64,000 nt of DNA from an uncultured Oscillospiraceae bacterium (lineage in GTDB: Bacteria > Bacillota > Clostridia > Oscillospirales > Oscillospiraceae). The notes below the pieces were generated by a model. That model had not been told where the DNA came from. It saw only the letters and a program-made list of their open reading frames with translations, and did no database searches. The DNA lies in the NCBI GenBank assembly GCA_905233385.1, contig CAJOEH010000022.1, positions 846 through 64,845 of the forward strand, in the 5' to 3' direction. Both the position numbers and the translations under genes were made by a program. This document shows, in pieces, positions 50,170 through 59,266 of this stretch (the first letter of the stretch is position 1; every line of letters starts with the position of its first letter).

Positions 50170-50919
50170 TCAGCCGTTGTAATTGACGACCTTCTCGAAT
50201 TTCTCCGCGACCAGGCTCGCGCCGCCGATCAGACCGCCGTCGATCTCCGGCTGGCTCATCAGCTCGCCCGCGTTCTTGTCGTTCATGCTGCCGCCGTAGA
50301 GGATGCGCACGTTCTCGGCGACGTAGCCAAACACGTCCCTGATCGCGCCGCGGATGGCGGCGATCGTGCGGTTGGCGTCGGCCGCCGTCGCGGTCATGCC
50401 CGTGCCGATCGCCCAGACGGGCTCATAGGCGATGACGCAGTCGGTGATCTGAGCAGAGGAAACGCCGCACAGGGCCGCCTTGGTCTGGAGGCAGACGACC
50501 TCGTTCGTGATGCCGGTCTGCTTCTGCTCCAGGCTCTCGCCGACGCAGATGATCGGCTTCAGGCCGTTTTCCAGCGCCTTCAGCACCTTCTTGTTGACGG
50601 TCTCGTCTGTCTCCGCGAAATACTGGCGGCGCTCGGAGTGGCCGAGAATGACGTACTCCACGCCCAGCTCCTTCAGGCTCGCGCAGTTCGCTTCGCCGGT
50701 GAACGCGCCCTTATCCGCGAAGTGGACGTTCTGCGCGCCGAGGTGCAGGTCCGTGCCCTTGATCTGGGCGGAGGCGGCGAACAGACTGACCGTCATCGGG
50801 CAAACGACGATCTCCACGTTCGTCTTCGGCTGAATCTTTTTGAGCTCCTGGATCAGCGCGACGGTCTCCGCGGGCGTCTCGTTCATCTTCCAGTTGCCCG
50901 CGATCATGGGTCTTCTCAT
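50170..50919 (-). CDS. tpiA: Triosephosphate isomerase
   Basis: AGNWKMN, GHSERR, AYEPVWAIGTG and GGASL motifs. Confidence 0.96.
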   Translation of the reverse strand: MRRPMIAGNWKMNETPAETVALIQELKKIQPKTNVEIVVCPMTVSLFAASAQIKGTDLHLGAQNVHFADKGAFTGEANCASLKELGVEYVILGHSERRQYFAETDETVNKKVLKALENGLKPIICVGESLEQKQTGITNEVVCLQTKAALCGVSSAQITDCVIAYEPVWAIGTGMTATAADANRTIAAIRGAIRDVFGYVAENVRILYGGSMNDKNAGELMSQPEIDGGLIGGASLVAEKFEKVVNYNG

Positions 50920-50934: not shown

Positions 50935-51765
50935 TCAATACAGCTTCGGACGGATATCCACGTTGCCCGACGGGCAGGTCTTGCAGTTGCCGCAGTTGAC
51001 GCACTTGTGCTCGTCCTCGGTGACGCCGGAGACGATCTTGCCGGTGGAGCTTGCGCCGATGCGGTTCGCGCCGGCGTTGATCATGTTGACCGCGTCGGTG
51101 TAGGTACGCACGCCGCCGGAGGCCTTGACGCCGATGTCGGGGCCGACCGTCTCACGCATCAGGCGGACGTCTTCGACCGTCGCGCCGCCGGTGGAGAAGC
51201 CGGTGGAGGTCTTGACGAAGTGCGCGCCTGCCAGCTTGGAGACGGTGCACGCCTTGACCTTCTCTTCGTCGGTCAGCAGGCAGCATTCGATGATGACCTT
51301 GACCAGCGCGCGGCCGCGGACGGCGTTGACGACGCCCTCGATATCGCGCTTGACGAGCTGCCAGTCGCCGGACTTGACGGCGCCGATGTTGATGACCATG
51401 TCGATTTCGCGTGCGCCCTTGGTCGCCGCGTCGGAGGCCTCAAACGCCTTCGTTTCGGGCGTGCATGCGCCGAGCGGGAACGCGATGACGCAGCACGGCG
51501 TCACGCCGCTGCCCTCGAGCTGCTGCGCCACGTACTGGATATAGGACGGGTTGACGCAGACGCTGGCGGTGTGATACTTCTTCGCCTCGTCGCAGATCTT
51601 GCGGATGTCCGTGATGCTGGCTTCCGGCTTCAAAAACGTATGGTCGATGTATTTTGCCATGTCGGCAGGGCTTTTGCCGGCCGGCGCCGCGGCTCCGGGA
51701 GCGGCTGCGCCGTACTTGGAGCAGATCTCCTCCGTCACCTGGCGGATGATTTCATTGATATCCAT
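50935..51765 (-). CDS. deoC: Deoxyribose-phosphate aldolase with N-terminal encapsulation peptide and C-terminal Cys4 tail
   Basis: IDHT, EIDMVIN, FVKTSTG, GVKASGG and RIGASS; N-term [14 protein letters not shown]; C-term [11 protein letters not shown]. Confidence 0.93.
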
Positions 51766-51788: not shown

Positions 51789-52541
51789 TTACTTTCTTGC
51801 TTCTTCCGCGATCTTCGCGGTCGCGGTCAGTCCGAGGCGGACCGCGCCGGCCGCAAGCAGTTCCTCCGCCTGCGCCAGCGTCTTGATGCCGCCGTCGATC
51901 TTGATGCCGACGTTCCTTCCGAGGATATCGTAGGCAAACCGGACGTCCTCCACGCGCGCGCCGTGTCCGCTGAGCATGTTCTGGATCTTGACGAAGTCCA
52001 CGCCGCTGCTGCGCAGCATGGTCAGAACCGCCTGCTTCTCCTCGAACGTGTAGAGGGAATGCTCAAAGACCGCCTTGATCTTTGCTTTGCCGCAGGTAAA
52101 GCGCACCAGCTCCTCCAGCTCCCGCTGCGCCTCGTCCAGACGGCCGGACTTAATCGCGAGCGCATTGATCGCGACGTCGATCTCGGTCGCGCCGTTCGCC
52201 ATGCACTCGCGCAGCTCGGCGAGCTTCGCCGCCTGCGACATGCAGCCGTGCGGGAAGCCGATCGCGGTGCCGACCGCGACGGGACTGCCGAGCAGGGCGT
52301 CGCGCGCCGCCGCGACGTAGTAAGGCGCAACGCAGACCGCCGCGACGGAGTACTTGCGCGCCACGGCGCACTCCGCTTTGATCTTGTCCAGCGTCGTGTC
52401 GGGATTGAGCAGAGAATGCTCCAGATGAGCGACCACGTCCGCGCCGGTCACGATCCCCGCGAGGGGCGCCGGATTCGCGTCTGCGTGGAAGTACGCCAGC
52501 ACCTGACGCTCTACTTCTTTTCTGATTGCTTCTACATCCAT
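51789..52541 (-). CDS. Divergent DeoC-like class I aldolase with encapsulation peptide
   Basis: LEHS, EIDVAIN, FVKIQNM and GIKIDGG; N-term [18 protein letters not shown]. Confidence 0.85.
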
Positions 52542-52829
52542 TTAGTGATACTCCCTGACCTCGCCGTCGAACGTAAGGTGGTCGATGACGCCGCAGATCG
52601 TGATGTCGCCGATGCAGTGACGGCCGAGCAGAATGCTTGCCGCGCCGCCGTCGCAGGCGACGACCACGGTATCTCCGATACCGGCGTCCGCCACGTCGAA
52701 GGCGATCGCCTCTTCTCCGGTCAGATTGCCCGCTTCATCGAGGTAGTCGATGATCATGAGCTTCTGCCCGTCGAATCCGGCGTCCTTGATCGTGGAAACG
52801 ACGTTTCCGACGACTCTTGCCAGCTTCAT
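52542..52829 (-). CDS. BMC-P pentamer (EutN/CcmL family)
   Basis: [18 protein letters not shown] and GVID motifs. Confidence 0.92.
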
Positions 52830-53101
52830 CCCATTCTCGGGAGAATGCCCTCGACGTCATCGTGCGGGGACGGGATCACGTGGCAGCCGTACAGCTCGCC
52901 GACGCGCTTTGCAGCCGTCGCGCCCGCGTCGACCGCGGCCTTGACCGCGCCGACGTCGCCGCGTACCATGACGGTGACGAGGCCGCTGCCGATCTGCTCT
53001 TTGCCGATCAGATGAACGTCTGCTGCCTTGACCATGGCGTCTGCCGCTTCAATGGAGCCGATCAGACCGCGGGTCTCGACCATTCCGAGTGCTAGTTTCA
53101 T
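52826..53101 (-). CDS. BMC-H hexamer shell protein
   Basis: [34 protein letters not shown] and VIPSPH motifs. Confidence 0.95.
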
Positions 53102-53116
53102 AATAATACCTCCAAA

Positions 53117-53398
53117 TTATTGATTTTCCGGTTGTATTTCTACGTTGTAGGAGTCGATAAAGCCGACGATGGCCGCATCGGCGGGGACCAGCTTCCTGCG
53201 GAAGATCCTCCCTGCCTCTCTGGAGCCGATCATGTAGACAATATCGCCCTTGCCTGCCTGTCGGGTGGAATCCGCCGCTACGATCATTTTTGTTTTTTTG
53301 CCTTTTTCGATCTTATGCACCACGAGGAGCGGAATATCTTCCATGCCCGGCTCCTTCACGGTGGCAACGACCGTTCCGACGACCTCCCCGATATACAT
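53117..53398 (-). CDS. BMC-P pentamer (EutN/CcmL family)
   Basis: [17 protein letters not shown] and AAIVGFID motifs. Confidence 0.9.
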
Positions 53399-53402
53399 GG
53401 GA

Positions 53403-53664
53403 TCAGCCGATCGTGGGCAGGATGCCCTCGACGTCGTCGTGCGGGGACGGGATCACGTGGCAGCCGTACAGCTCGCCGACGCGCTTCGCAGCCGTCGCGG
53501 ACGGTGACGAGGCCGCTGCCGATCTGGGTCTTGCCGATGAGATGAACGTTTGCCGCCTTGACCATGGCGTCGGCCGCCTCAATGGCGCCGATGAGGCCGC
53601 GGGTTTCCACCATACCGAGTGCTAATTTCATTTTCGTTGTCTCCTTCTTTTTTGTTGTTGCCAT
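53403..53664 (-). pseudogene. BMC-H copy with a 47-bp frameshifting deletion
   Basis: Matches its paralogs except that codons for [16 protein letters not shown] (47 nt) are missing at about 53500. Confidence 0.8.
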
Positions 53665-53676
53665 AGCGTTTACCTT

Positions 53677-53952
53677 TTAGCCCATCGTCGGCAGGATGCC
53701 TTCGACGTCGTCGTGCGGGGACGGGATCACGTGGCAGCCGTACAGCTCGCCGACGCGCTTCGCAGCCGTCGCGCCCGCGTCGACCGCAGCCTTGACCGCG
53801 CCGACGTCGCCGCGCACCATGACGGTGACGAGGCCGCTGCCGATCTGGGTCTTGCCGATGAGGCGGACGTTTGCTGCCTTGACCATCGCATCGGCCGCTT
53901 CGATCGCGCCGATGAGGCCGCGGGTTTCAACCATTCCTAATGCTTCTTTCAT
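53677..53952 (-). CDS. BMC-H hexamer shell protein
   Basis: Same BMC-H motifs; near-identical DNA to the other two copies. Confidence 0.95.
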
Positions 53953-54019
53953 GTTTTGTTATCCTCCGTTAAAAATTTATAATAATTTTTCAAAAGCAAC
54001 GAGTGAATTGCGCGCGGGC

Positions 54020-55426
54020 TCAGATGATGCGGAAGTCGCCCTTCAGCACGCAGCGTCTTGCGCGGGTAAAGGACTTCGCGCTGGTCAGGCCCTCGCCGGT
54101 CGGGGTGGCGATCGTCAGGGTGGTGTAGCCCTCACCGCCGAAGCCGAGGCCGGAGTAGGAAGGCGCGTTCTTGACGAAGATCGTCGTATTCATACGCTTC
54201 GCCGCGCGGGACATATTGTGGATGTTGGTCGAATGGATCAGCGCGGAGTGCTGGCAGCCGTGCTCGGCGCGGAACGCCTCCGAAAGCGCCTCGTCGAAGT
54301 TCGCCACGCGGACGCAGCCGAGGACCGGCATCAGCATCTCGACCTCGACGAAGGGATGGAAGCGGTCGACCTCCGCGATGACCAAGACGGGCTCGCCGGT
54401 GAAGGACACGCCGCTCTCGCGCAGGATGTAGGTCGCGTCGTGACCGACGAACTTGCGGTTGATGACGTACTTGCCGTCCTTCTGGATCAGCACGGTGCGA
54501 ACGATCTTGTCGATGTCCTCGCCGTAGACGCGGAAGGCGCCGTTGCGCTGCATCTGGCTCATGAGCTCGTCCGCGATGGAGGCGACCATGAAGCACTCCT
54601 TCTCCGCGACGCAGAGGATGTTGTTCTCAAAGCTCGCGCCGTCGACGATCTTCTTCGCGGCGTCCGGGATGTTCGCCGTCTCGTCGACGATGACCGGCGG
54701 ATTGCCGGGGCCTGCCGCGACGCACTTCTTGCCGGACTTCATCGCCACCGCGACGACCGCTTCGCCGCCGGTGACCGCCAGCATCTTGATCGCCTTGTGG
54801 CTCATCAGGACCGCCGAGGTCTCCATCGTCGGCTCCTTCGGCGCGGTGATCAGGCCGTTCGGGCCGCCCGCGTCGACGATCGCCTGGTTGAGAAGCTCCA
54901 TCGCCCGCTGCGAGGCGCGCTTCGCCGCAGGATGGGGGTTGTAGACCACGGCATTGCCCGCCGCGATCATGCTGATGGAGTTGTTGATGACCGTCGCGGT
55001 CGGGTTGGTCGACGGGGTGATCGAGCCGATGACGCCGTAGGGCGCCGTCTCGACGAGGGTCAGGCCGTCGTCGCCGCTGTAGGCGGTCGGGTGCAGGTCT
55101 TCCACACCGGGGGTCTTGTTCGCGGCGAGCAGGTTCTTCGCGATCTTGTGCTGGACCTTGCCGTAGCCGGTCTCGTCGTGCGCCAGGATCGCAAGCTCCT
55201 CGGCGTGCGCCCTTGCGCAGACGCGCATCGCATCGATCAGCTTGCCGCGGTCTTCCAGCGTCATTTCCGCCAGACGCTGCTGGGCGCGGATCGCGGTCTC
55301 GATCGCATCGTTGATGTCGTCAAACAGGCACTGCGCCGCGCCGCCGGCAGAACCGCCGCCGCCGCGCTCTAAACTGTTTTTGGTCTCTTCCGCGATTTTC
55401 CGTATCTGTTCTTTTGTCAACGCCAT
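54020..55426 (-). CDS. Acylating aldehyde dehydrogenase (EutE/PduP-like) with encapsulation peptide
   Basis: PSTNPT, TGGEAVV, NNILCVAEKE (catalytic Cys) and GGEGYTT motifs; N-terminal amphipathic helix plus Gly linker. Confidence 0.95.
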   Translation of the reverse strand: MALTKEQIRKIAEETKNSLERGGGGSAGGAAQCLFDDINDAIETAIRAQQRLAEMTLEDRGKLIDAMRVCARAHAEELAILAHDETGYGKVQHKIAKNLLAANKTPGVEDLHPTAYSGDDGLTLVETAPYGVIGSITPSTNPTATVINNSISMIAAGNAVVYNPHPAAKRASQRAMELLNQAIVDAGGPNGLITAPKEPTMETSAVLMSHKAIKMLAVTGGEAVVAVAMKSGKKCVAAGPGNPPVIVDETANIPDAAKKIVDGASFENNILCVAEKECFMVASIADELMSQMQRNGAFRVYGEDIDKIVRTVLIQKDGKYVINRKFVGHDATYILRESGVSFTGEPVLVIAEVDRFHPFVEVEMLMPVLGCVRVANFDEALSEAFRAEHGCQHSALIHSTNIHNMSRAAKRMNTTIFVKNAPSYSGLGFGGEGYTTLTIATPTGEGLTSAKSFTRARRCVLKGDFRII

Positions 55427-55435
55427 ACGCTATCC

Positions 55436-55741
55436 TCAACTTTCTTTGTTGAATTTTTCAAAGATCCTCTTGCCGTTCACGTCGACGTGGTCGATGATGG
55501 CAATGATGGTCTGATCGACGGGCTTGTTCTCCGTGACGATCGTCTGACGGGACGAGCTGCCGCTGACGGTCATAACGACCTCGCCCTCGCCTGCGCCGAC
55601 GGCGTCGATAGCGACGACCGGCGCGCCCTTCTCCTGCCAGGTCTCAATGTCGATGGGCTTGACGATCAGCAGCTTCAGGCCGTAGAGCTTCTCCGCCTTG
55701 TTGGTGCTGACGACCGTTCCTTTTACGATGCCTAAATTCAT
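55436..55741 (-). CDS. BMC-P pentamer (EutN/CcmL family)
   Basis: GIVKGTVVST, AIDAVGAGEGE, SGSSSR and AIID motifs. Confidence 0.94.
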   Translation of the reverse strand: MNLGIVKGTVVSTNKAEKLYGLKLLIVKPIDIETWQEKGAPVVAIDAVGAGEGEVVMTVSGSSSRQTIVTENKPVDQTIIAIIDHVDVNGKRIFEKFNKES

Positions 55742-56430
55742 ACCGTTTCTCCTTCATACTGCACCGCGACGTCGGACGCGCGCAGGGCGTCGCGCGCCGC
55801 CGGTGTAATGATCGCGCCCACGCGGGCGGTGATGGTCCTGTCCTTCGTCTGCGCCGCGGCGAGGACGTCCGCTTCGGTGATCAGCGTCGCGCCGATCCGG
55901 GCGGCGGCGTCGCCGGTAAAGTACGGGCAGACGGCGACGTTCATCTGGCGCAGGGTGTCGATTGAAGAGGCGACGCCCTCCAGGAACGTGTTGCGCTTGA
56001 ATTTCGGCGGCTCAAAGTCGAGATACAGCCGCACATCCTTCCGCCACAGCACGCTGCGGACGATCAGGTAGGAAAGGAAGTCGCTGTCCTCTCCCCGCGC
56101 GATCTGCCCCAGAAGCTCCAGCCGCGGCCCGACTAAAACGACCGTTTTCGCCGCGGTAATCTTCGCGAGCAGTTCCGGCTGTCCGAGATGATCCGCAAAG
56201 AGCAACCCCTCGTCCTGCACGCCGGGCTGCTGCACGAAGCTGAGGAAGGTGTAACCCTCGCCGAACTGCGTTTGGAGCAGTTCCCTCAGCTCCTTCGGGT
56301 AGGCGACCGGCGCAGCCAGCAGCACGAGCACCTGCTCGGGATGCTGCGCCTCGCGCTCGAGCCGCGCGATCCGGCGCACGACCTCCGCGACGATCAGATC
56401 TATTAATTTGTGTAAAAGCTCTGTATCCAT
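55738..56430 (-). CDS. PduM/flavoprotein-like BMC accessory protein
   Basis: N-terminal encapsulation peptide LIDLIVAEVVRRI; C-terminal LITEADV...IITPAARD motif. Confidence 0.65.
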   Translation of the reverse strand: MDTELLHKLIDLIVAEVVRRIARLEREAQHPEQVLVLLAAPVAYPKELRELLQTQFGEGYTFLSFVQQPGVQDEGLLFADHLGQPELLAKITAAKTVVLVGPRLELLGQIARGEDSDFLSYLIVRSVLWRKDVRLYLDFEPPKFKRNTFLEGVASSIDTLRQMNVAVCPYFTGDAAARIGATLITEADVLAAAQTKDRTITARVGAIITPAARDALRASDVAVQYEGETV

Positions 56431-56454
56431 CTCTTACACAACCTTAACTCGATG

Positions 56455-57093
56455 TTATTTCAATACTTCCATCATTGTGCTGCCGCTCATGGCGACGGCA
56501 TTCGCCTCGTCGGTGTCGACGTGGACCTCCATATCGTGCCCGTCGCCCGCGCGGACGATGACGTTTTCAAAGACCACCGCGCGGTCGCCCTCGCTCCTGA
56601 GGCGGACGGTCTGACCGTCGCGCAGGCCGAACAGCGCCGCCTGCGCCGCGGACAGATGCAGATGCCGCGCCGCCACGATCACGCCCTCGGGAATGTCGAT
56701 CTGCCCCATCGGGCCGATGAGACTGCATCCCGGCGTACCGGCGGTCTTGCCGGACATGCGGACCGGCGGGCGGATGCCCAGCGAGAACGAGTCGGTGAAG
56801 GCGATCTCCACCTGTGTCGCCTTGCGCTCCGGTCCGAGGACGCGGACGCGCTCCAACTTCCCCTTCGGACCGACGACCGTCACCTGCTCCACGCATGCGA
56901 ACTGTCCCGGCTGAGAAAGGTCGCGGAATTTCTGTAACTGATAGCCCGCGCCGAACAGCCGCTCCACGTCCGCGCGGGACAGATGCACGTGCCGCGCCGA
57001 CGCCGCCACGGGAACGAAGATCCGTCCCGTTTCGCGGAAGATCCGCTCGGCGACCGCAAGCTGCACCGGCCGCTGAATGCTCGCTTTATCCAT
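56455..57093 (-). CDS. pduL: PduL-type phosphotransacylase
   Basis: SARHVHLS, LSQPGQFA, RVLGPER, VIVAARHLH and HVDTDEANA motifs. Confidence 0.95.
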   Translation of the reverse strand: MDKASIQRPVQLAVAERIFRETGRIFVPVAASARHVHLSRADVERLFGAGYQLQKFRDLSQPGQFACVEQVTVVGPKGKLERVRVLGPERKATQVEIAFTDSFSLGIRPPVRMSGKTAGTPGCSLIGPMGQIDIPEGVIVAARHLHLSAAQAALFGLRDGQTVRLRSEGDRAVVFENVIVRAGDGHDMEVHVDTDEANAVAMSGSTMMEVLK

Positions 57094-58282
57094 TCGCGTT
57101 CACCTTTTTCATGACGATGCCTTCAAAATAGGTCTTCGCCAAAATCGTTTTCACGTCGTCCACCGTCGGACGGACAATATTCGTCAGCGTCGCCGTATCG
57201 GCGAGGGCGTGCTCCGCCAGCACGTCGATATCGTCCATGCTGAACTTCGTCTCGCACAGCGGCGGGATCTTCACGTCCGCGCAGAGCTTCCGCACCGCCT
57301 CGATCGCGAGCCGGGAAGCGGCGTCGACGGAGAGGCTGTCGATCTTCTCTCCCATCGCCTGCGCGACGTCCGCGAGCCGTCCCATGCAGTAGGGGCGGTT
57401 GTACTCCAGCACGCGCGGCAGCATGATCGCGTTGGCAAGGCCGTGCGGGATATTGTAGAAGCCGCCGAGCTGGTGGGCGATGCCGTGCACCAGGCCCAGG
57501 CCGGCGTTCGAGAACGACAGGCCCGCCATGTATTCCGCCCAGCACATATCCGTACGGGCGTCCATATTCGACCCGTCGCGCACCGCGGCGCGCAGCGACT
57601 TGCTCACAAGGCGGATCGACTCCAGCGCAAGCGCGTCCGTATAGGGCGTGGGAACACTGCAGATGTACGCTTCGATCGCATGCGTCAGCGCGTCGATGCC
57701 CGTCGCCGCCGTCAGGGAGGGCGGCATGCCGACCATCAGCATCGGGTCGTCCAGCGCCAGATACGTCAGGCAGTTCGGGTCAACCATCAGCATCTTGGAT
57801 TTCGCCTTTTCATCCGTGACGACGTATGCCGCCGTGCATTCCGAGCCGGTGCCCGCCGTCGTGTTGACCGCGATGATCGGCGAGCCGGGCTTTTTGGATT
57901 TGTTCACGCCGTTGTAGTCTTCGATCTTGCCGCCGTTCGCCGACAGGATGCTGACCGCCTTCGCCACGTCGATCGACGAGCCGCCGCCGATGGCGATCAA
58001 CGCGCCGCAGCCGTTCTTCGTAAAGAACTCCAGCGCCTGATAGACGATCCGCGTCGTCGGATTCGGCTCCACGCCGTCAAACACCGCGTAGTTGATCCCC
58101 GCCTGGTCGAGCACGGCGATGACCTTGCCGGCGGTGCCGATCTTGACCAGGCCCTTGTCGGTGATCACGAGGACCTTTTGTGCGTTCAGATCGCGCAGAA
58201 AACGCGGGATCTGCAGGATGCCGTCGCGCCCGATCAGGGTGTGCCGCGGCTGATAAAGTTCTACCGTTTCGATCTGTTCCAT
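57086..58282 (-). CDS. Iron-containing alcohol dehydrogenase
   Basis: GGGSSIDVAK, TTAGTGSE, DALTHAIE, HGIAH and HGLAN motifs; start 58282 after GGAGAG. Confidence 0.94.
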   Translation of the reverse strand: MEQIETVELYQPRHTLIGRDGILQIPRFLRDLNAQKVLVITDKGLVKIGTAGKVIAVLDQAGINYAVFDGVEPNPTTRIVYQALEFFTKNGCGALIAIGGGSSIDVAKAVSILSANGGKIEDYNGVNKSKKPGSPIIAVNTTAGTGSECTAAYVVTDEKAKSKMLMVDPNCLTYLALDDPMLMVGMPPSLTAATGIDALTHAIEAYICSVPTPYTDALALESIRLVSKSLRAAVRDGSNMDARTDMCWAEYMAGLSFSNAGLGLVHGIAHQLGGFYNIPHGLANAIMLPRVLEYNRPYCMGRLADVAQAMGEKIDSLSVDAASRLAIEAVRKLCADVKIPPLCETKFSMDDIDVLAEHALADTATLTNIVRPTVDDVKTILAKTYFEGIVMKKVNANG

Positions 58283-58300
58283 CGTTTCGCTCTCCATTGT

Positions 58301-58324
58301 AAAACGCTCAAAATCGCTCATTTT
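58301..58324 (-). promoter_or_regulatory. Tandem 10-bp direct-repeat operator upstream of the BMC genes
   Basis: Minus strand AAAATGAGCG-ATTTTGAGCG; the same motif occurs upstream of deoR. Confidence 0.7.
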
Positions 58325-58480: not shown

Positions 58481-59266
58481 TCATTCAAGCGGGAGCAGCG
58501 TGCAGGGAATGCCCTGTTTTGCATAGAAATTCACAAATTCCTGCGGCATGTTCTGCGTGGAGATGACGCGGCACGCCTTCTCCGGCGGGAACATCGTCGC
58601 GAACGCGCGGCGGCCGAACTTCGCGCTGTCCAGCAGCATGTACATCCGGCGCGTCATGCGCGAAAGCTGGGTGTAAAGCGCCGTGCGGTTCTTGTCCTGC
58701 ACGGTGTAGCCGCGCTCCAGATCCACGCCCTCGACCGTCAGGAAGACCTTGTCGAAGAAATAACCGCGCAGGGTGTGGTTGACGTCCGGGTCGAGCGTCT
58801 CGATATAGTTCTTGCCGGTGCGGACGTCGCCGCCGAGGAGGGTCACGGAGACGTTCGGGCACTCCGCCAGCTCCAGGACCGCCGTCACGGAGGTCGTTAC
58901 CACGGTCAGCCGCTCGACGTCGCGCAGCTGCGCCGCGAAAATGTTGCAGGTTTTGCCCGCGCCGATGAAGATGGATTCGCCGGAGCGCACCTGCGCCGCC
59001 GCTTCCTTCGCGATCAGCAGCTTTTCCTTGTCGATCTCGTCGCCGATCTCGGTGCCGTTGACGTAGCGGCTGTGATCCGGGCGTTTTTCCGGCAGCTTCA
59101 GGCCGCCGTGCGTGCGCTCCGCCAGCCCCTTGCCCTGGATCTCGTCAAAATCGCGGCGCGTCGTGGCGACGGAGGCGCCGGTCAGTTCGCAGATCTCCTG
59201 CATGGAGATCGCGCCGCGCTCGTGCAGCAGGTCCAAAATCTTCTTTTCACGTTCCCAGTACTTCAT
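58481..59266 (-). CDS. DeoR/GlpR-family regulator
   Basis: HTH SVATTRRDF..ERTHGG; IFIGAGKT; VTTSV; LLDSAKFG. Confidence 0.94.
   Translation of the reverse strand: MKYWEREKKILDLLHERGAISMQEICELTGASVATTRRDFDEIQGKGLAERTHGGLKLPEKRPDHSRYVNGTEIGDEIDKEKLLIAKEAAAQVRSGESIFIGAGKTCNIFAAQLRDVERLTVVTTSVTAVLELAECPNVSVTLLGGDVRTGKNYIETLDPDVNHTLRGYFFDKVFLTVEGVDLERGYTVQDKNRTALYTQLSRMTRRMYMLLDSAKFGRRAFATMFPPEKACRVISTQNMPQEFVNFYAKQGIPCTLLPLE

Follow-up and report, generated by a model that had tools for sequence, protein, structure and literature searches.

What does a second, divergent aldolase contribute to a sugar-phosphate (SPU) bacterial microcompartment (BMC) whose locus has no ribose-5-phosphate isomerase (RPI)? 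SPU organelles are among the most widespread BMCs, their chemistry has so far been tested for one deoxyribose-phosphate aldolase (DERA), and the role of their RPI is unexplained. The question is raised by a 64,000-nucleotide stretch (the window) from an uncultured Oscillospiraceae bacterium (GenBank assembly GCA_905233385.1, contig CAJOEH010000022.1, positions 846 to 64,845), which carries an SPU4-like operon encoding two DERA-family proteins, the canonical DeoC1 and the divergent DeoC2. Here we report that DeoC2 is, as judged from its sequence, a previously undescribed and conserved DERA variant of predicted function, and that it marks an RPI-less branch of SPU4-like microcompartments.

DeoC2 was aligned to DeoC1, to solved DERAs and to E. 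coli DeoC, the inclusion of which fixed the E. coli numbering used below. The four residues that define DERA catalysis (Lys167, Lys201, Asp102 and Lys137 in E. coli) are all present. An earlier sequence-only reading of DeoC2 had described retention of the EID, FVK and GxK motifs together with replacement of KTSTG by KIQNM, KASGG by KIDGG, and GASS by GLTA; the alignment confirmed each of these, and brought out several features that had been missed, namely the retention of Lys156, the change of LLKP to LLNP (Asn46), and three further family-specific changes (Asn to Ala72, Thr/Cys to His161, and Leu to His98). After the Schiff-base Lys185, Thr-Ser-Thr-Gly is replaced by Ile-Gln-Asn-Met (186-189), with Met189 at the Gly171 position; Ala-Ser before the Gly-Gly pair is replaced by Ile-Asp (215-216), with Lys220 in place of Arg; and Ala-Ser-Ser is replaced by Leu-Thr-Ala (238-240). 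Cys70, the equivalent of E. coli C47, is kept.

The ligands of the phosphate in E. coli DERA are S238, G205, G204, G171, V206, S239, and K172, with N21 nearby (PMC8403123, PMC7671976), and our definition of the phosphate site (Gly171, Gly204/205, Ser238/239, and a positive charge supplied by Lys172 or, in short DERAs, by the LLKP lysine) was taken from the same two studies. DeoC2 lacks the canonical site so defined; its remnants are Gly217 and Gly218 (G204 and G205), Gly237 (G236), and a hydroxyl at position 239, where Thr conservatively replaces Ser238. The phosphate-binding loops are thus, on sequence grounds, remodelled rather than lost, and the original statement that DeoC2 loses them was too strong.

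Conservation of this combination was assessed in two sets of homologs. A word-seeded HMMER search returned 321 relatives of DeoC2 at E<=1e-10, of which the best 120 (55-92% identity; from Oscillospiraceae, Christensenella, and Synergistaceae) included 109 full-length sequences, retained with no motif filter. The four catalytic residues occur in 109/109 of these, and Asn46, Asp122, Lys156, Lys185, Ile186, Gln187, Asn188, Lys214, Ile215, Asp216, Gly217, Gly218, Gly237, Leu238, Thr239, and Ala240 are all invariant or nearly so. Motif-seeded scans of species-representative genomes (79 loci) and metagenomes (80 loci) provided a broader set of 159 loci from Bacillota, Synergistota, Spirochaetota, and marine or termite metagenomes, containing 136 distinct DeoC2-like proteins (33-94% identity) and 98 canonical DeoC1 proteins. 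The four catalytic residues are present throughout both groups (136/136 and 98/98, respectively), whereas the phosphate-site positions separate them: position 46 holds Lys in every DeoC1 (98/98) and in none of the DeoC2-like proteins (N95, D28, V5, A4, with other residues in the remainder); position 189 is Gly in 98/98 DeoC1 and never Gly in DeoC2-like proteins (M54, A53, V22, F5); position 216 is Ser or Ala in DeoC1 and Asp in 135/136 DeoC2-like proteins; and position 188 is Thr in 95/98 DeoC1 and Asn in 135/136 DeoC2-like proteins. The Cys47 equivalent, Cys in 98/98 DeoC1, is Val in 28/136 DeoC2-like proteins. The sequence-only reading had named variability of its substitutions among homologs as one observation that would undo it; they proved near-invariant in the 109 unfiltered homologs and in the 136 orthologs alike.

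The pocket is also more conserved than the fold that carries it. Across the 136 orthologs, the mean majority fraction is 0.83 at pocket positions vs 0.66 at the remaining barrel positions, with entropies of 0.57 vs 1.38 bits. Pairwise ratios of nonsynonymous to synonymous substitution rates (dN/dS) among Oscillospiraceae orthologs reveal purifying selection on DeoC2 (0.082), alongside values of 0.085 for DeoC1, 0.078 for the acylating aldehyde dehydrogenase (AldDH), and 0.097 for triosephosphate isomerase (TPI). An unfiltered search of 1.84 billion representative proteins recovered a compact non-canonical group of KIQN and KISN types, nearly all with KIDGG.

In phylogenetic trees the DeoC2-like proteins form one clade (FastTree support 99, IQ-TREE SH-aLRT 99), and the DeoC1 proteins encoded at the same loci all fall in another (94). 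Branching within the two clades is broadly parallel, with longer branches for DeoC2, from which it follows that the DeoC1/DeoC2 pair is old and has travelled together with the locus. A sister relation between the DeoC2 clade and microcompartment DeoC1 has supports of only 80-86; the equal length of their N-terminal extensions suggests descent of both from an aldolase that already bore a putative encapsulation peptide. Among the nearest representatives, those of 420-530 amino acids (e.g. P0140 and P0142) include many with a canonical DERA domain C-terminal to an N-terminal domain of ~240 amino acids, which may be counterparts of the flavoprotein-DERA fusions known from Hodarchaeales microcompartments.

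At the level of the gene and fold, DeoC2 appears to be an intact DERA-family protein equipped as microcompartment cargo. The open reading frame (ORF) is uninterrupted over 250 codons, and its ribosome-binding site (GGGAG) lies within the end of the upstream BMC-P gene, the TAA stop of which its ATG start abuts. The protein matches PF01791 (DeoC/LacD class I aldolase superfamily) over residues 50-233 with 36.2 bits vs a cut-off of 23.8, is 34% identical to DeoC1 over 244 residues with zero gaps, N-terminal extension included, and reaches up to about 40% identity with solved DERAs. An AlphaFold2 (AF2) model built from a 26-sequence alignment (mean predicted local distance difference test score, pLDDT, 89) comprises an N-terminal helix (residues 3-17), a linker modelled with low confidence (~19-32; pLDDT <50 at residues 19-25), and a regular eight-stranded barrel. 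The top Foldseek match of the barrel is Bacillus halodurans DERA (6D33; E 6e-20, root-mean-square deviation 1.5 A over 215 columns), and all other DERA structures are superposed as well. At the N-terminus, M1, D2, I6, and V10 are nearly invariant among orthologs, and an N-terminus of the same kind occurs on DeoC1, where the helix is similar and equal in length, and on every distant DeoC2-like protein examined. A terminal amphipathic helix followed by a poorly conserved linker agrees with the way in which the encapsulation peptides of SPU DERAs have been described (PMC11585597). Given these features and the position of the gene in a shell-protein locus, we infer that the helix is an encapsulation peptide and that DeoC2 is encapsulated.

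The reading that we favour, at slightly better than an even chance, is that DeoC2 is encapsulated, is active as a Schiff-base aldolase, and acts on a non-phosphorylated aldol from which acetaldehyde is released. The N-terminal amphipathic helix would carry the protein into the microcompartment. Donor chemistry would proceed as in DERA, with Lys185 forming the imine, Lys214 and Asp122 serving as the proton relay, and Lys156 retained; since the donor chemistry would be unchanged, DeoC2 should still release or add acetaldehyde, which would feed the co-encoded AldDH, PduL, and alcohol dehydrogenase (ADH). On the acceptor side, the phosphate site has been stripped of positive charge (Lys to Asn46 in LLKP) and given a carboxylate (Asp216), the glycine near which phosphate binds is filled by Met, Ala, or Val (position 189), Leu takes the place of Ala at 238, and a Ser hydroxyl is lost at Ala240. 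The resulting pocket, predicted to be smaller and lined by Gln187, Asn188, Asp216, His161, and Thr239, could suit hydroxyls or a short alkyl chain, such that the acceptor subsite would exclude phosphate and favour a small neutral, hydroxylated, or alkyl group. DeoC1 would retain the reaction with 2-deoxyribose 5-phosphate (DR5P). The most likely substrate candidates, as predicted from the pocket, are free 2-deoxy-D-ribose (giving acetaldehyde and D-glyceraldehyde) or small 3-hydroxy-aldehydes, for example the self-aldol products into which DERA converts acetaldehyde at high concentration, through cleavage or formation of the 3-hydroxybutanal type. That the DeoC2-like proteins as a whole constitute a naturally occurring DERA subfamily with specificity for 2-deoxy-aldoses or 3-hydroxy-aldehydes that bear no phosphate is a more tentative proposal, to which we give somewhat less than an even chance.

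A non-phosphorylated or otherwise different substrate had already been suggested from the sequence-only reading. The suggestion is strengthened by the conservation of the pocket relative to the barrel, the complete catalytic set in all orthologs, the dN/dS values, and the correspondence with positions altered in engineered DERAs, although this evidence falls short of proof. In E. coli DERA, S238D raises activity on free deoxyribose 2.5-fold and lowers kcat on DR5P >100-fold, and G171A, G171S, G204A, and S239E diminish DR5P cleavage and increase acetaldehyde addition; in the best engineered variants, a negative charge at the phosphate site is paired with C47V, which aids aldehyde tolerance (PMC8403123, PMC7671976).

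Several points weigh against this assignment. The geometry of the pocket side chains is derived from alignment to published structures. Phosphate contacts in DERA are made mostly by backbone amides and waters, and with Gly217, Gly218, Gly237, and the 239 hydroxyl retained, residual phosphate binding may persist. An additional retro-aldolase shifts no equilibrium, which leaves a weak rationale for a version in which DeoC2 clears self-aldol products. The window locus has no transporter or kinase pointing to a free sugar, and the FGGY kinases, GatD-like Zn-dehydrogenase, and RbsB-like transporters found in relatives' loci hint at a phosphorylated route. The scan patterns used to collect the 136 proteins (KIQN[MV]LSG, KIDGG, and IKIDG) make the counts for Lys214, Asp216, and KIQN partly circular; independent support for conservation of the motifs comes from the 109 unfiltered homologs and from the all-against-all HMMER search of the 1.84 billion representatives. 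Finally, six rare metagenome representatives (P0128, P0129, P0135, P0151, P0165, and P0200) have lost Lys185, some of them also Lys214 or Asp122, and most lie inside the DeoC2-like clade, so the lineage can persist without catalysis.

These six relatives bear equally on the alternative that survives best, which we consider unlikely: DeoC2 may serve mainly as a structural partner of DeoC1, that is, as a core-organising or packaging subunit, possibly in a DeoC1:DeoC2 heteromer tied to the third BMC-P, that replaces RPI and in which catalysis is secondary or vestigial. The precedent is the SPU RPI itself, which lacks its catalytic Cys and shows negligible activity as an isomerase; it associates with DERA at a ratio of about 1:1, and a packaging role has been proposed for it (Dwyer et al. 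2024, PMC11585597). RPI is found in only 18/29 SPU4 loci (Dwyer et al. 2024, PMC11585597), and an RpiB homolog occurs in only 1/159 DeoC2-bearing loci. The gene order fits as well, as DeoC2 lies between BMC-P and DeoC1, with its start codon against the BMC-P stop, and published SPU aldolase and RPI genes adjoin two BMC-P genes; the similar, equally long N-terminal helices of DeoC1 and DeoC2 point the same way. A scaffold, however, needs neither Asp122, Lys156, Lys185, and Lys214 in 136/136 orthologs, nor an invariant remodelled pocket more conserved than the remaining fold, and the degenerate relatives are singleton or doubleton clusters (1-2 members each among ~15 billion proteins), each found on one contig. 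The two roles are compatible, and the retained catalytic residues argue against a purely structural one. A pseudo-enzyme scaffold, the other option raised in the sequence-only reading, is for the same reasons disfavoured, whereas a role as DeoC1 partner beside catalysis keeps some plausibility because the RPI to which DERA binds in other SPU microcompartments is missing from DeoC2-bearing loci.

Could DeoC2 simply remain a DR5P aldolase, an isozyme that differs in affinity, in regulation, or in its tolerance of aldehydes? It passes the deoC equivalog model TIGR00126 (155.7 bits vs a cut-off of 117.3), every source that names it says deoxyribose-phosphate aldolase (the ESM Atlas gave only DERA-named clusters), two phosphate loops retain the glycines that form their backbone, and E. 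coli DERA with S238I/S239I still turns over DR5P (PMC5975929). We nevertheless regard this as improbable. The TIGR00126 score reaches about half the 283.7 bits of DeoC1, and five phosphate-site changes are fixed together (Lys to Asn46, Gly to Met/Ala/Val189, Ser to Asp216, Ala to Leu238, and Ser to Ala240), where comparable single changes (G171A/S, S239D/E, S238D) reduce DR5P activity fivefold to >100-fold (PMC8403123, PMC7671976). Moreover, a canonical DeoC is always co-encoded, and redundancy leaves strong purifying selection on a different pocket unexplained.

A substrate that is unusual or positively charged (for example an amino-aldehyde acceptor or a 2,6-dideoxy sugar), or a donor larger than acetaldehyde, with the organelle serving a compound unrelated to DNA breakdown, is in our view equally improbable. 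The pocket is neutral to acidic (Asp216 invariant, position 46 Asn or Asp in N95 and D28), the donor side could be widened by the smaller Ser43 and Ala93, where DeoC1 has Thr and Val, and instead of nucleoside genes the loci of relatives contain ABC transporters for sugars, FGGY kinases, and Zn-dependent dehydrogenases of the polyol-phosphate type. Set against this, no neighbouring gene in the window indicates a candidate compound, Asp216 may simply pair with Lys220, and the canonical DeoC1 and the Bacillus-type DeoR of relatives fit deoxyribose metabolism. 

The operon of Christensenella hongkongensis HKU16 (L052:10528-20036) illustrates the additional genes of relatives' loci: a SorC/Bacillus-DeoR-type regulator, a Zn-dehydrogenase closest to galactitol-1-phosphate 5-dehydrogenase (GatD-like), an FGGY pentulose-type kinase, and an RbsB-like ABC transporter. 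Similar genes occur in L051, L061, L062, L065, L100, and L140 (Christensenellaceae, some other Bacillota, and marine loci), and the set suggests that an imported neutral sugar or polyol is phosphorylated and feeds the organelle, although these neighbours do not add up to a coherent pathway.

A decaying duplicate is ruled out by the dN/dS of 0.08 and 136 intact orthologs, and a recent tandem duplicate of DeoC1 by the trees, in which the DeoC2 clade is separate and old. Two loci considered as candidates for Lys-less copies (L143 and L155) were rejected, as KIQN is present in both. The gene at L143 (L143:6599-8657) encodes an intact encapsulation-peptide-like N-terminus and lies beside an IS200 transposase; the 8 kb around it are free of shell genes, and it looks like a displaced copy.

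Features of DeoC2 and of the surrounding operon are summarized in Table 1.

Table 1. Positions in the window of DeoC2, its diagnostic residues and motifs, and the genes around it, with the evidence for each.
Feature	Positions	Strand	Evidence
DeoC2, 250-aa DERA-family paralog with remodelled acceptor/phosphate pocket	51789..52541	-	ORF, PF01791, TIGR00126, AF2, Foldseek
DeoC2 residues 1-18, encapsulation-peptide-like amphipathic helix	52488..52541	-	AF2 helix 3-17, near-invariant positions
DeoC2 residues 19-35, poorly conserved Ala/Pro/Gly linker from helix to barrel	52437..52487	-	low pLDDT, variable columns
Asn46, E. coli N21 position (LLKP to LLNP)	52404..52406	-	Lys in 98/98 DeoC1, never in DeoC2-like
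Asp122 (E. coli D102), catalytic, in EID motif	52176..52178	-	alignment, 136/136 orthologs
Lys156 (E. coli K137)	52074..52076	-	alignment, 136/136 orthologs
KIQNMLSG, residues 185-192, with Schiff-base Lys185 (K167; FVK)	51966..51989	-	alignment
KIDGGIK, residues 214-220, with Lys214 (K201; GIK)	51882..51902	-	alignment
GLTAT, residues 237-241, with Leu238/Thr239/Ala240 for E. coli A237/S238/S239	51819..51833	-	alignment
Third BMC-P (EutN) gene, TAA stop abutting DeoC2 ATG; gene pair conserved across loci	52542..52829	-	profile match, synteny
DeoC1, canonical DERA (KTSTG, KASGG, GASS, LLKP), with encapsulation-peptide-like N-terminus, Cys-rich C-terminal tail, and terminal Tyr	50935..51765	-	TIGR00126 283.7 bits
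Triosephosphate isomerase (TPI), final gene of the operon; place after DeoC1 conserved	50170..50919	-	PF00121 304.6 bits
Remaining SPU4-like microcompartment operon	52826..58321	-	Pfam, NCBIfam; type from published descriptions
DeoR-family regulator upstream of operon, conserved in Oscillospiraceae loci	58481..59266	-	PF00455, PF08220

The order of genes is DeoR regulator, Fe-ADH, PduL phosphotransacylase, a 230-aa protein of no assigned family, BMC-P, acylating AldDH, BMC-H, a frameshifted BMC-H, BMC-P, BMC-H, BMC-P, DeoC2, DeoC1, and TPI, the two aldolase genes being out of frame with each other. The genome (1.88 Mb in 29 contigs, ~95% complete) contains one microcompartment locus. DeoC1 and DeoC2 are its only DeoC-family genes, and its sole RpiB is encoded on another contig (contig 9), outside that locus. 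A phosphopentomutase (deoB) and a ribokinase are present, so that an ordinary supply of DR5P exists, and a search of the genome for pyrimidine-nucleoside phosphorylase found none; the searches for these three genes do not discriminate between the hypotheses.

Across the 159 loci, a canonical DeoC is present throughout and DeoC2 occupies one fixed slot after BMC-P, in keeping with the proposal that it is the distinguishing enzyme of this BMC type, at least as a marker. Loci of sufficient length from Oscillospiraceae, Christensenellaceae, and Synergistaceae have the order BMC-P / DeoC2 / DeoC1 / TPI. Carriers in culture include Christensenella hongkongensis HKU16 (L052) and Faecousia intestinalis CLA-AA-H192 (L039). 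The DeoC2-like gene of loci from termite-gut Treponema and from marine, hypersaline, and bioreactor metagenomes is mostly of the KISNA type; it still closes the shell block, immediately after the third BMC-P, and the canonical DeoC of these loci lies upstream of PduL.

Three further observations concern the operon. The second BMC-H gene (53356-53664, minus strand) is frameshifted, having 47 nt fewer than its closest relative (L007) and leaving the BMC fold after ~55 residues; the explanation is either decay of a redundant copy or misassembly of near-identical paralogs. In 75 related loci a PduS-like flavin/Fe-S protein (Complex1_51K, RnfC_N, Fer4) and a BMC-T of ~180 aa lie between AldDH and the first BMC-H; both are missing from L007 and from the window (53952-54020, compared with L016:5623-8567), where ~70 nt remain. 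The C-terminus of DeoC1 (50935-51040, minus strand) consists of a Cys-rich tail ending in Tyr, of which DeoC2 has no counterpart; in 89/96 DeoC1 proteins encoded beside a DeoC2 the tail is ~30-39 residues long with at least 3 Cys, the examples printed reading CxxCxxCxxxCP, a ferredoxin-type spacing, and that of the window is one residue shorter (CxxCxxCxxCP).

A conserved second aldolase in the place of RPI changes the proposed SPU scheme, adding either a second signature enzyme or a catalytic core organiser. The RPI-less branch is represented in the gut by Oscillospiraceae and Christensenellaceae, and further by Synergistota, the Treponema of termite guts, and marine metagenomes. If the specificity for a non-phosphorylated substrate is real, a 'sugar-phosphate' microcompartment would run two aldehyde-generating aldolases and take in a neutral substrate in addition to DR5P, and the DeoC2-like subfamily would offer ready-made phosphate-independent DERA catalysts. 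DERA has been engineered for the synthesis of statin side chains and 1,3-butanediol through weaker phosphate binding and hardening towards aldehydes, and the DeoC2 clade records the changes that evolution has made there. With respect to annotation, a deoC equivalog pass and a universal deoxyribose-phosphate aldolase name probably overstate what is known of DeoC2.

Compared with known systems, the window locus most resembles SPU4 (Sutter et al. 2021; Dwyer et al. 2024), with which it shares a Firmicutes host, AldDH, a PduL-type phosphotransacylase (pfam06130), TPI (pfam00121), a BMC-P triplet, near-identical BMC-H copies, and a DERA (pfam01791) with an N-terminal extension; the window locus has no BMC-T, and SPU4 loci have no consistent one. 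Its 230-aa family-less protein sits where SPU4 loci carry a eut_hyp-type protein with an encapsulation peptide. Unlike SPU4, it lacks RPI (pfam02502), the second signature enzyme, and has a divergent second DERA in its place. A second, divergent type of DERA in microcompartments was not found in the literature searched, nor in the text of Sutter et al. 2021 or Dwyer et al. 2024; the table of hidden Markov models in Sutter et al. 2021 contains two pfam01791 models, and the DERA that Dwyer et al. 2024 found to be active on DR5P is from SPU6 (PMC11585597). DeoC2 is comparable to the SPU RPI, an RpiB homolog with Asp for the catalytic Cys, in being an enzyme homolog with a putative encapsulation peptide whose gene adjoins those of DERA and BMC-P, and the two are almost mutually exclusive in the loci examined. 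They differ in that their folds are unrelated, and in that RPI lacks its catalytic residue whereas DeoC2 keeps all of its own.

Among characterized aldolases, DeoC2 is closest to short-class bacterial DERAs (EC 4.1.2.4) such as BH1352 (6D33; 39% identity), sharing the TIM barrel, the Schiff-base Lys, the second Lys, the Asp, and the equivalents of Lys137 and Cys47. It departs from canonical DERAs, DeoC1 included, in the acceptor/phosphate subsite (positions 46, 72, 161, 186-189, 215-216, and 238-240), and from DeoC1 in having no Cys-rich C-terminal tail or terminal Tyr and in belonging to a separate clade. The nearest parallels to the remodelled pocket are engineered E. coli and Klebsiella DERAs (S238D; G171A/S; C47V/G204A/S239D): DeoC2-like proteins are changed at the Gly171, Gly204-loop, Ser238/Ser239, and Asn21 positions, place a negative charge at the phosphate site, and in some members replace Cys47 by Val. 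Unlike the engineered enzymes, however, they combine more changes, keep Gly204, and have their carboxylate immediately ahead of that glycine instead of at 238/239.

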